Source of the DNA: a virus
Taxonomy: Duplodnaviria; Heunggongvirae; Uroviricota; Caudoviricetes
Reading direction: 5' to 3' (one strand)
IMG/VR virus record: IMGVR_UViG_2565956708_000007
DNA length: 64,000 nucleotides
Positions 16,332 through 51,598 of this stretch are shown piece by piece; position 1 is the first letter of the stretch; every line of letters begins with the position of its first letter. The notes beneath the pieces are model-generated. The model was not told the DNA's origin. It saw only the letters and a list, made by a program, of their open reading frames with translations, and did not search any database. Both the position numbers and the translations under genes were made by a program.

Positions 16332-16348
16332 AGATTTATTAGAGCAAT
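16332..16348 (-). promoter_or_regulatory. C1 operator-like site
   Basis: plus strand AGATTTATTAGAGCAAT, 16/17 to reverse-complement consensus. Confidence 0.7.
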
Positions 16349-31863: not shown

Positions 31864-32329
31864 ACTTGCCGGGTACGTCTCCGGCGAGGGCTTCCACCTC
31901 CGTATGCTTTTCGGCGCACCGCGCCCTGGCTGCAATTCGGTAACAGGGGATGCATAACCCTGGCTTCCAGCGTGATTAGCGCTTTCAGCATGACGGGATA
32001 TACCCGTAAATTCGTGGAACTGTACCCAAAGTGCTGTTAAGCACCGCTGTTACGCTGAAAAGAAGACGCAACAGGAAAGGACGCTGACCAACAGATGGCC
32101 CCTTCTCGTTCATCTGGTTAATCACACCAGCGCCCTTACCTGTTGTGCCTCCCCGTTCCCTAATACACAGACGGGGACACTCTGCGGTCGATTTTTTTGA
32201 CGGGGGACGACTCATACCCCGTGGCATCTGGTTTCTTAGGCCGCTACCATCATCAGATCATCGTTTGCATTTACTTTAATGGTCAGTTTCTAAACCGCCG
32301 CAAAGTCGCTAACCATGACGAAAACCCTG

Positions 32330-32355
32330 AAAAAAACGCCCACCCGAAGATGGGC
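32330..32355 (-). terminator. Intrinsic terminator-like hairpin plus U-run in the leader upstream of the tRNA genes
   Basis: minus strand GCCCA-tcttcggg-TGGGC followed by GTTTTTTT. Confidence 0.55.
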
Positions 32356-32518
32356 AAACTGGAAGCTCGTAACGCACTTCGGCGTTGCCACTTAGGCGCA
32401 TGGTCAACCTGGCAACTCGGTGGTTTGTCTGGGAGGACTAGGCCCAGCCATGCTTACCGCCGCGCCTGTCGCGGCTAACAGCTAAATCGCTCTATAAATC
32501 ACGATTCATTGAGGCGAT

Positions 32519-32546
32519 ATTACACTAATAAATTTATTAGAGCAAT
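32519..32546 (-). promoter_or_regulatory. Two overlapping, oppositely oriented C1 operator-like sites with embedded promoter for the tRNA-ban operon
   Basis: ATTACACTAATAAATTT (15/17) overlapping AAATTTATTAGAGCAAT (17/17 reverse complement); -35 TTGCTC and -10 TAATAT on minus strand. Confidence 0.75.
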
Positions 32547-34801
32547 ACACCCAAAACGTCATGAGCTACACCTCGAGTGTCCCCCTTACAAGACACAGAA
32601 CGTCTGGCAAAAAGAGGTTCCACTCTGAAGCCACTGTCATGATAAAGCTCTCTGATGTTTGGCGCGCCACTGTTAGTAATGAGAACCTTTGCACCTCGAC
32701 GATGAGCATCCGTCAACAGAGACACCAGGCGTTTTTGCTCTTCAAACTTAAAGTCATGACCGGAATAGTTCGTGAATCCCTCTGTATTTGGAAGCGGTTC
32801 ATACGGCGGATCGCAAAAGATGACATCTCCTTCTCCGGCAGCTTCAATCACCGCTGCAAAATCACCGCATACAAACTCAGACCGCCCTTCCGCACCGAGG
32901 AAGGCTTCCATCTCCTGTAATGGGAAATACGGAGTTTTATACTTCCCATAACCGACATTGAACTCACCGGCCTGGTTGTAACGCGTCAATCCGTTAAAAC
33001 AATGTCGGTTCAGGAACAAAAACGCCGCTGCGCGATGTAAATCATCATAGACTTGTTTGTTAAACGCATTCCGTACTGCCAGGTATCCTTCCTGTGTGTT
33101 GTAGTCCTGGAAGAAACGATGTGCCAGAGTGATAAGTGAATGCGCCTCGCGTTGCAGAGTCTTGTAAAAGTTAATCAGGTCAGCATTCACATCATTTAGC
33201 AGATTTTCCTGGTATCCGGCATTCATGAAGACAGCTCCGCCACCAACGAAAGGTTCAATCAGGCGCTTCCCTTCTGGCAAATAGCGAAAGATTTGTTCCA
33301 GAACACCAAATTTTCCACCAGCCCATTTGAATATGGACCGTTCGAATTCTGCCGCTGGTTTAACTTTTCGCTCTTTTGTTTCACTTCCTTCTTTCTGCCG
33401 ACATACGGCCTTAGTAATCCGATCGCCAATCCAGCGCATTACTGGTATTGCCATACTATTGCCGATCGCTTTGTAACGCGGTCCGTCAGCTGCAAGCATC
33501 GCGGCCTCTTCTTCGCTTAAATCTGGATAGTGATTGCGAAGATATGCCAGTTCATCTGAATTAACTTTTTTACGCTTTTCCGTCGGGATCAACGTATGCC
33601 CATCAGGAAAACCTTGCAGCCTTTCACATTCGACAGGGGTAAGACGGCGGACAGCTACTTCTGCGTTTCTTACTTCATAGCAAACAGCTGTTGGATTTTT
33701 AGCCATTAGAGATGGTGAAGTATTCTTAGTTGCAGCATGTTGTGTACCGCTCATACGCTCAGGAAAAGCCAATGTAACAAGATGCTCATGGCTTTCTTGC
33801 TCACGTGCCCGCAATGTACCATGCCCTTCTGACCAAAAACCTGCTCCTGTGCTGCTAAAAACGGCAAGGTCAGTGGCATCTTTAAAATCTCTTGCCTTTA
33901 CTGTCGATGCGGTTTCATCGTCAATATATTCCCCAAATGCTGCCATCCTGAAAGCGTTTACGGCTTTCGTCGATTTCATACCGGGTGGCATGTCAGCGTG
34001 TAGGCATGGATTTAGGCTTTCGCCACTGATTGCAGCGCCATTTGCAATAATGGCGGAAGCGATTTCCTTCTTTTTTCGGCTCGGCGCAATATTCCGGCGC
34101 ACGCCTTCGAACTCAAAAAGTACCGTTGCGGGATCGAGGTCTGTTCGAGCACTTGCGACAACAAACACGCGTCGGCGTCGTTGTGCCACTCCGAAGTATT
34201 GGGCATCAAGGATTCTCCAGGCCACCTTTCGCTGCGGTCCATAAATACAACCACACTGCGGCCACTTTGGAGCATGGCAACCGGTTTTGCCATCCCACCG
34301 CCAGAACGCGTTACTTTTTCCTGATTCAGGTCGATCACCTGGTTCAAATGGCGCATCTTCTCCAGCCAATCCGGCAAGGAAACATCCGAAGGCGTTATCT
34401 GCCGATGACAGGACTCCTGGGACATTTTCCCAGACGATAACTGTCGGTTTGAGAAATGACTCAGCCCGTTTGTCGTCAATTGCATTTGCAAGCTCCACAT
34501 ACTTTAAAGTTAGCGCGCCACGCTCATCATCAAGCCCACCACGTAATCCAGCGATACTGAATGCCTGACAAGGTGTTCCCCCGACGAGCACATCAGGGGA
34601 TTCGATTTCCCCAGCCAGGACTTTTTTGGCAAGTTTTGTCATGTCGCCAAGGTTGGCGACATGGGGCCAGCGGTGCGCAAGAACGGCAGATGGAAAAGGC
34701 TCGATTTCAGCAAACCACGCCGGACGCATACCCAACGGTTCCCAGGCAATACTCGCGGCTTCAATTCCACTGCAAACAGATCCATAGCACAGCTCTTTCA
34801 C
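32537..34801 (-). CDS. dmt: Dmt, bifunctional DNA methyltransferase (N-terminal C5-cytosine MTase fused to C-terminal Dam-like N6-adenine MTase)
   Basis: GGTPCQAFS (PCQ motif IV) and ENV motif N-terminally; DPPY motif C-terminally; 754 aa. Confidence 0.9.
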
Positions 34802-36051: not shown

Positions 36052-36068
36052 ATATTTATTAGAGCAAT
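36052..36068 (-). promoter_or_regulatory. C1 operator-like site for the uhr-hrdC-dmt operon
   Basis: plus strand ATATTTATTAGAGCAAT, 16/17. Confidence 0.7.
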
Positions 36069-51493: not shown

Positions 51494-51510
51494 TTAGAAA
51501 ACGAAATTTA
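51494..51510 (-). promoter_or_regulatory. C1 operator-like site controlling kilA-repL
   Basis: plus strand AAATTTATTAGAGCAAA, 16/17. Confidence 0.75.
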
Positions 51511-51598
51511 TTAGAGCAAATTTTTCTAACTCGATCCAGATCGGGTTGGACGATCTGCTCAGAAACCTGCCAGTTTGCTGGCAGGTTTTTTTCTTTTG

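Follow-up and report, generated by a model that had tools for sequence, protein, structure and literature searches.

What does a phage gain by placing a structured, untranslated RNA and a strong terminator between a repressor-controlled promoter and the genes of a long operon? This question is raised by the interval 32330-32546 of a 64,000-nucleotide (nt) stretch of tailed-phage DNA (IMG/VR record IMGVR_UViG_2565956708_000007; the whole stretch is referred to as the window). The region shares 99% identity with phage P1 and related phages. Its minus strand, on which all features lie unless stated otherwise, carries in order dmt (32537-34801), the interval, ∼470 nt of non-coding DNA, tRNA-Asn, tRNA-Thr, a tRNA with a CAT anticodon, and the ban region. 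In this P1-type phage, the interval forms the 5′ leader of the ban operon, which C1 represses. An earlier note, made from the DNA letters alone, had described its anatomy correctly: a C1-controlled promoter, then a structured leader free of open reading frames (ORFs) that ends at an intrinsic terminator, then the tRNA/ban operon. The note missed the decisive point, which emerges from sequence comparison: the structured core belongs to a large RNA family that lies beside DicF in lambdoid prophages. The core of the leader is a real, widespread and apparently undescribed structured RNA; the operator, the promoter and the terminator are known or ordinary.

Comparative analysis identifies the segment 32384-32474 as a multi-helix RNA domain with a predicted loop-to-strand pseudoknot. 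The domain is ∼90 nt long, begins ∼35 nt into the transcript, and comprises three helices (P1, P2 and P3) and a 6-bp pseudoknot between the internal loop of P2 and the loop of P3. Helix P1 (32460-32474) pairs CCGCG with CGCGG across an ACAGG loop, with its 3′ arm inside invariant block 1 (GGCGCGGCGGUAAGYAUGG); it is the helix behind the hairpin GCCGCG-ACAGG-CGCGGC that the earlier note had pointed out, and which we find at 32475-32459. Helix P2 (32418-32459) has a lower stem formed by CGGU (32459-32456) and ACCG (32421-32418), an internal loop that supplies the 5′ strand of the pseudoknot (GCAUGG, 32453-32448), and a variable upper hairpin, CUGGG-CCUAGUCCU-CCCAG (32447-32429), here called hairpin 2. 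Helix P3 (32384-32416) pairs GUUGCCA with UGGCAAC around a near-invariant 19-nt loop, GGUUGACCAUGCGCCUAAG, and the strand CCAUGC in this loop (32403-32398) pairs with 32453-32448 to complete the pseudoknot. The family covariance model matches the window once, at 32342-32497 (95.7 bits, E = 6e-31). The features that define the family are all present in the window (both invariant blocks, the variable hairpin between them, P1, P2, P3 and the pseudoknot), and every family helix forms there except the outer closing helix P0 (GUUGUGGY / RCYRCAAC). A further small hairpin 5′ of the domain (AAUCG...CGAUU, 32485-32506) is a minimum-free-energy prediction specific to the P1 type, and it is invariant in that lineage and so shows no covariation.

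The evidence for this fold is comparative and does not come from the folding of single sequences: the 183-nt leader folded alone gives z = -1.6, which is not significant, and its minimum-free-energy structure disagrees with the comparative one. We used an alignment of 77 sequences (76 distinct) collected with two reciprocal anchors and supplemented with reference phages; the structure was derived partly from the same sequences that test it, and helix P1 is without covariation. In this alignment 95.7% of the paired cells can pair, compared with 33-52% after the partners have been shifted by 1-3 columns, and nine pairs are changed on both sides, compared with 0-5 after the shift. None of 500 shuffles matches the observed values for pairing, double changes or covariation. 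RNAalifold independently gives P0, P1, P2 and P3, together with a compensated pair at columns 43-84 (U-A or C-G). The two blocks, GGCGCGGCGGYAAGYAUGG and CAGGYUGRCCAURCGC, are near-invariant even when the opposite block serves as the search anchor, and the pseudoknot pair at columns 47-106 is U-A in 70 sequences, U-G in four and C-G in two.

The pattern of change also tells what kind of constraint is at work, and on which strand. Hairpin 2 occurs in 46 versions, 25-31 nt long with one outlier of 51 nt, and with at least seven distinct stem sequences that are exchanged as whole stems. Because these versions differ in steps of 1 nt and yet all form hairpins, the constraint appears to be on RNA and not on a coding sequence. 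Read from the opposite strand, the U-G and G-U pairs that occur in P0 would become A-C mismatches, which argues that the RNA is made from the operon strand. The loop of hairpin 2 (32442-32434 and its equivalents) is pyrimidine-rich, with a recurring UCCU(U/C) despite the differing stems, and in the lambdoid internal loop the opposite strand carries GAGGA, a possible alternative pairing or anti-Shine-Dalgarno-like feature.

Is the same constraint visible within the P1 lineage itself? The leader core is invariant across ∼470 P1-type plasmids, except for compensated changes. Hairpin 2 has been swapped with its pairing kept (CUGGG/CCCAG in P1, CGGGG/CCCC in P7), and one pseudoknot pair is U-A in P7 and C-G in P1. 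Because the core is otherwise unchanged, hairpin 2 is replaced in paired form and the pseudoknot pair is altered on both sides, these comparisons indicate purifying selection on structure. The earlier note had allowed that comparison might expose the interval as unconserved spacer; the conservation among these plasmids, and the existence of relatives far outside P1, speak clearly against that.

The P1 reference record annotates a "dicF-like region" at 68791-68892, which corresponds approximately to window positions 32422-32321. We therefore asked whether the leader encodes a form of DicF, and rejected this reading: the Rfam DicF model (RF00039, gathering threshold 48 bits) gives no match at E ≤ 1 over 5 kb, nor at E ≤ 10 over 32280-32560, while the same model finds the DicF of the Qin prophage with 76.7 bits. 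The resemblance lies elsewhere. In BLAST searches the P1 leader matches many lambdoid phages over ∼95 nt (∼32474-32380) at 75-79% identity, and the match to the Qin dicF locus is 77.6% over ∼97 nt. In Qin the homologous segment (positions 963-1059 of our extract of that locus, L006) lies directly upstream of mature DicF (1083-1135) and excludes it, so that the Qin element ends ∼25 nt short of the DicF 5′ end generated by RNase E (PMC5069750, PMC9438474). The P1 leader and the Qin locus thus share a layout of element, short linker and terminator hairpin, but the homology covers the upstream element and not DicF, and the tail of the P1 leader pairs with ftsZ (-60 to +60) no better than shuffled sequences do (p ∼0.2-0.3 in a crude duplex test).

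The setting of the element is the same wherever we inspected it: a repressor-controlled early promoter, the element, and then the first terminator of a long operon. In phages mEp460, cdtI and 2H10, in Salmonella F1055, in Qin and in a phage whose recorded host is Actinobacillus, the leftward early operon always carries the element, which closely follows the repressor gene and precedes dicB, kil, exonuclease or recombination genes. A hairpin followed by a T-run is found within 110 nt downstream in all 126 members with enough flanking sequence (126/126). In lambdoids this hairpin is of the DicF type (GGCGG...CCGCC-CUUUUU), with a loop, the seed of the small RNA, that varies by phage group; P1 and P7 have a short UUCG-capped terminator instead. 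Because the downstream hairpin and its seed vary, the constant part of the locus is the upstream element and not the small RNA. A match in MT713136.1 (Aeromonas phage AP1) at 249906-249973 is 98.5% identical to DicF and its downstream flank (Qin query positions 134-201) and carries no upstream element, which could mean either that DicF is in rare cases uncoupled or that the assembly is chimeric.

The lambdoid copies show one additional feature that is absent from P1. Sequence 1-25 nt past the DicF-type terminator is complementary to the region just 5′ of the element, the 5′ strand of P0 included, so that a stem of at least 15 bp, possible in read-through transcripts only, would bracket the element and DicF together. 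In the Qin locus the strands are ∼925-955 and ∼1160-1185, and equivalents are found in four other lambdoid loci (L005, L010, L045 and L225); in L045 the stem has an energy of -38.6 kcal/mol compared with -22.7±3.5 kcal/mol for shuffles, and none of 300 shuffles reaches it. This stem is likely a site of excision by RNase III, which fits the RNase III-dependent 72-nt form of DicF (PMC5069750), and it likely provides an alternative partner for the 5′ strand of P0.

How widespread is the element, and has it been seen before? Of 5426 complete E. coli genomes, 4414 (∼80%) match the Qin element, with a median of two and a maximum of eight copies; 479 copies are on plasmids, and ∼9400 places are matched in complete E. 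coli assemblies. In PLSDB the P1-type leader is present on ∼470-500 plasmids and the segment just past its terminator on ∼570-620; the remaining plasmids presumably resemble phage D6, which is discussed below. The family is found mostly in Escherichia, but also in Salmonella, in Serratia and in the phage recorded from Actinobacillus. A diverged copy in Serratia symbiotica (103 bits) retains both blocks, with another hairpin-2 stem, a compensated change in P3 and a terminator hairpin after the element. A scan of contigs with a permissive gapped pattern and a covariance-model sieve yielded at least five true members, in a sample that under-represents the taxonomic range. No Rfam 15 family matches over the element, and no RefSeq annotation lies beneath it among the 12 E. 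coli records listed. It is not described in recent papers on DicF or in a 2025 review of phage small RNAs, while older literature may mention it.

The two ends of the leader are of a more familiar kind. At the upstream end, two overlapping C1 operators in opposite orientation are present, as the earlier note had proposed: Op72a (Obana; 32530-32546, minus strand, ATTGCTCTAATAAATTT) matches at 17/17 positions and overlaps the last dmt codons and stop, and Op72b (Obanb; 32519-32535, plus strand, ATTACACTAATAAATTT) matches at 15/17 and shares 6 bp with Op72a. The -35 and -10 hexamers of the note coincide exactly with the annotated signals of the sigma-70 promoter P1ban (32517-32545; TTGCTC at 32545-32540, TAATAT at 32522-32517, spacer of 17 nt). 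All of these map one-to-one onto features at 68667-68696 of AF234172 (NC_005856), where they are labeled as the divalent operator Obanab (formerly Op72ab) and P1ban, identical in sequence, in spacing and in their place at the end of dmt, with no difference from the window. The operator pair and promoter are therefore an already known feature, a prior annotation that the note had overlooked. The P1 record has a weaker predicted promoter, P2ban, just upstream, and P7 is annotated alike; C1 repression at Op72ab is taken from the record annotation alone. In the window as a whole we found 12 C1-site matches with at most three mismatches, compared with 0.34 expected, and none of 100 shuffles reaches 12. 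The ten matches beyond the Op72 pair have 1-3 mismatches (for example 24-40, 16332-16348, 36052-36068 and 51504-51520) and are as expected for the dispersed C1 regulon of P1.

At the downstream end, the terminator that the note had recognized is a strong intrinsic one (32330-32356; UGCCCAUC-UUCG-GGUGGGCG followed by U7). The terminator scan gives an 8-bp stem with five G-C pairs and a UUCG loop at 32356-32337, and T7 at 32336-32330; this combination of a G+C-rich hairpin and a U-run is kept in P1, P7, D6 and an E. albertii plasmid, and no other strong terminator-like site occurs on the minus strand from the promoter to the ban region. With a start near 32510, as inferred from the promoter, the leader RNA would be ∼181 nt, in line with the length of ∼180 nt that the note had expected for an RNA ending there. 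Between the domain and the terminator lies a tail or linker, GCCGAAGUGCGUUACGAGCUUCCAGUU (32357-32383), that has no DicF homology and is the least conserved part in the P1 lineage: the E. albertii plasmid has five substitutions and a 4-nt insertion within ∼28 nt there, with the core and the terminator unchanged. The note's statement that only ORFs of 15 codons or fewer occur in the interval holds for ATG starts; when GTG and TTG starts are allowed, mechanical ORFs of 24-33 codons overlap it on the minus strand, and an ORF of 93 codons with a TTG start lies on the plus strand. None of the ORFs in the interval shows a coding signature, given that the length of hairpin 2 varies in 1-nt steps.

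This leaves the central puzzle: what would such a domain do between a promoter and a terminator? The P1 reference annotates no coding sequence on the operon strand for ∼1.5 kb past the promoter, and a stretch of this kind is exposed to Rho. We tentatively favor the view, to which we give somewhat less than an even chance, that the domain is a cis-acting leader RNA that promotes read-through, with the logic of the put RNAs and an unrelated fold. Transcription would begin at P1ban, within the divalent operator, and the domain would act in cis on the RNA polymerase that has just transcribed it, allowing passage of the adjacent terminator; in P1, transcription would be carried over the unannotated ∼1.5 kb into the tRNA and ban genes. 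As with put, this would be RNA-mediated antitermination without an N protein. Transcripts that do terminate would leave a short RNA: one of ∼180 nt in P1, and in lambdoids the precursor of DicF. We favor this reading because two unrelated phage types share the promoter, the element, the strong terminator and the long operon, because nothing N-like was found between repressor and element in the lambdoid groups checked, and because of the long Rho-exposed stretch in P1. The near-invariant 20-nt loop and strand blocks would fit binding to a conserved host machine. In a more ambitious form of the proposal, which we regard as doubtful at present, the domain would be a processive antiterminator with no relation to put and would define a new structural class among the RNAs that modify RNA polymerase.

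The comparison with known antitermination systems is instructive. The put sites (putL and putR of HK022, putL of HK639) follow the same logic, a structured RNA acting in cis after a repressor-controlled promoter and ahead of terminators, and they work on intrinsic and Rho-dependent terminators without dedicated protein factors (PMC9378689). Part of what defines put is that it suppresses terminators in cis through contact with the zinc-binding domain of the RNA polymerase beta′ subunit. Unlike the P1 leader domain, put RNAs are ∼70 nt long and consist of two stem-loops that form no pseudoknot. The three put sites form a clear sequence family of their own, and the element cannot be aligned with the strings conserved among them, CGAACGGCGCG..AAACCAUGCGUCGG..GGCGGG.UCAGGA.GA.CGGCAAU. 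The family covariance model (R1) gives no match at the put sites of HK022 and HK639, with a 6-bit fragment elsewhere in HK639 only. Membership of the element in the put group was considered and rejected, since only short strings are common to both (GCGGCGG, ACCAUGCG and UCAGG.UGA), in different structural contexts; we keep put as an analogy.

The slot that the element occupies in lambdoids is the place of nutL in lambda and of putL in HK022 and HK639. Like nut, the element is in the leftward early operon, and some lambdoid copies have a boxA-like UGCUCUC just 5′ of it; in contrast to nut, neither a boxB-type hairpin nor an N-type protein was found with it, and the boxA-like string is absent from P1. 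We discarded a boxA interpretation of this flank, which is better explained as a strand of the long-range stem. No N-type Pfam families are found in the ORFs from repressor to element in the two lambdoid groups checked. In cdtI no ORF lies between pL and the element, and Q is the sole annotated antiterminator, with no annotated N. A tRNA-like reading of the four-way junction was likewise dropped, with no ARAGORN or Rfam tRNA-model call over 32330-32546.

Several observations tell against read-through control and have to be set beside these arguments. Only 4/8 positions of helix P0 pair in the window, and a candidate substitute for this outer helix in P1 (GCUG..AGC with GCU..CAGU) was abandoned when it proved to be lost in the E. 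albertii plasmid. The family is shallow and consists mostly of Escherichia prophages, which leaves few independent substitution events. To judge by sequence and covariance model, the element is unrelated to put, and read-through as opposed to termination is something that we infer throughout. Processive antiterminators need not adjoin a terminator, and the terminator found next to the element in 126/126 members is at least equally expected of a local attenuator or of a small-RNA gene. Finally, phage D6 has the same terminator, tRNA leader and downstream operon behind an unrelated upstream segment without the element; in D6 the element is either dispensable or replaced by something else. The leader of D6 (∼2265-2300 of its locus, L152) does hold CCCCGCUGCAACG, a string identical to the 3′ end of the lambdoid element (the end of P3 and the 3′ strand of P0), which suggests a recombination scar.

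A serious alternative, rather unlikely in our estimate, is that the terminated RNA itself is the product: a stable non-coding RNA or small-RNA precursor, perhaps a scaffold that shields or places the small RNA next to the terminator (DicF in lambdoids) or passes it on to RNase E, RNase III or Hfq, or a protein-binding RNA that acts in trans. The constant adjacency of element and terminator hairpin, the ∼25 nt that separate the Qin element from the DicF 5′ end, and the resemblance of the lambdoid long-range stem to an RNase III excision site all speak for a product, and near-invariant loops would suit protein binding as well. But the domain is strictly kept in P1, which has no DicF and whose tail, the part of the leader conserved least, is no more complementary to ftsZ than shuffles are; biogenesis of DicF is therefore not the sole role of the domain. 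The element is moreover better conserved than the small-RNA seeds that it would serve. The same two properties of the tail give little support to a base-pairing small RNA, one reading of the C1-controlled small RNA that the earlier note had proposed.

The other proposal of that note, an attenuator, is compatible with the data and close to the read-through reading that we prefer, but no alternative antiterminator pairing is conserved. In its strict form, where a bound ligand, protein or RNA decides whether the terminator folds, and with it the choice between a small RNA and the downstream genes, we consider it improbable. The layout is that of riboswitches and attenuators, with a conserved structured domain, the would-be aptamer, directly upstream (within 15-30 nt) of an intrinsic terminator of variable sequence, and the 5′ strand of P0 in lambdoids has two alternative partners. 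In P1, CCGAAG (32382-32377) is complementary to CUUCGG at the apex of the terminator. This candidate pairing does not survive in the E. albertii plasmid, where CCGAAG has become CCGAAA without a compensating change in the terminator, and no mutually exclusive pairing is conserved across types. Nor does the element match an Rfam riboswitch, and its gene context, early phage operons of mixed content, hints at no ligand.

More improbable still is that the P1 copy is a functionless recombinational relic of a lambdoid dicF region, with a terminator that ends late dmt transcripts and insulates the ban operon. In favor of a relic, the terminator is on the strand of dmt, 180 nt past its stop, D6 reveals the element and the module of terminator and tRNA leader as separable parts of a mosaic, and the P1 copy, without P0, has a lower score on the family model (95.7 vs ∼180 bits). 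A relic would hardly account for a core that is unchanged across hundreds of P1-lineage plasmids, for the replacement of hairpin 2 with its pairing kept, or for a pseudoknot pair changed on both sides.

The importance of the element is best seen against the history of the locus. DicF was among the first bacterial small RNAs to be described, and dicBF is a locus of the best-studied bacterium; yet what is most conserved there is an unannotated RNA just upstream of DicF, with a predicted pseudoknot, and not DicF itself, and the same RNA heads the ban operon of P1. If read-through control is correct, it would explain how expression of long early operons continues beyond a strong terminator in P1 and in lambdoids without N, and it would explain the balance of DicF and DicB/Kil; the element would then add a second fold to the very few RNAs that are known to reprogram RNA polymerase. 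As a new class, it would govern early phage operons past a built-in terminator (the dicB, kil and recombination genes in lambdoids, the tRNAs and ban in P1) and set the ratio of DicF to the downstream inhibitors of cell division. Even as a processing scaffold, the element merits an Rfam family and annotation at the ∼9400 places in E. coli.

The DNA downstream of the leader has features of its own. The tRNA-Asn (31788-31863) and tRNA-Thr (31710-31785) genes are, with the CAT-anticodon tRNA, the only tRNAs called in the window by ARAGORN and the Rfam tRNA model. An ATG-start ORF of 80 codons (31985-32227) lies inside the otherwise "non-coding" stretch from terminator to tRNA-Asn and is unannotated in the P1 reference; the record of phage JL22 has hypothetical proteins beneath a matched stretch of 1.1 kb. 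Three bracketed hairpin units are found in the tRNA region (32146-32040, 31707-31620 and 31492-31400; ends approximate), with conserved ends CACAACAGGUAAGGG ... CCCUUACCGUUGUG, variable inserts of 40-50 nt and minimum free energies of -35 to -46 kcal/mol. The middle unit, directly after tRNA-Thr, contains a perfect T-arm, GGGUUCGAAUCCC, yet is not called as a tRNA by ARAGORN; D6 is annotated with a doubtful tRNA-Ser 3′ of its tRNA-Thr. At 30815-30935 there is a sub-threshold match to the Rfam family STnc100, a gammaproteobacterial small RNA (37.8 bits compared with a gathering threshold of 47, E = 9e-6). Between tRNA-Thr and the CAT-anticodon tRNA (29737-30781) the window has an ORF of 275 amino acids with a lipoprotein-like N-terminus and one of 78 amino acids, where the P1 reference has plp, upl and tciABC; the cargo of the operon thus appears to differ from that of reference P1.

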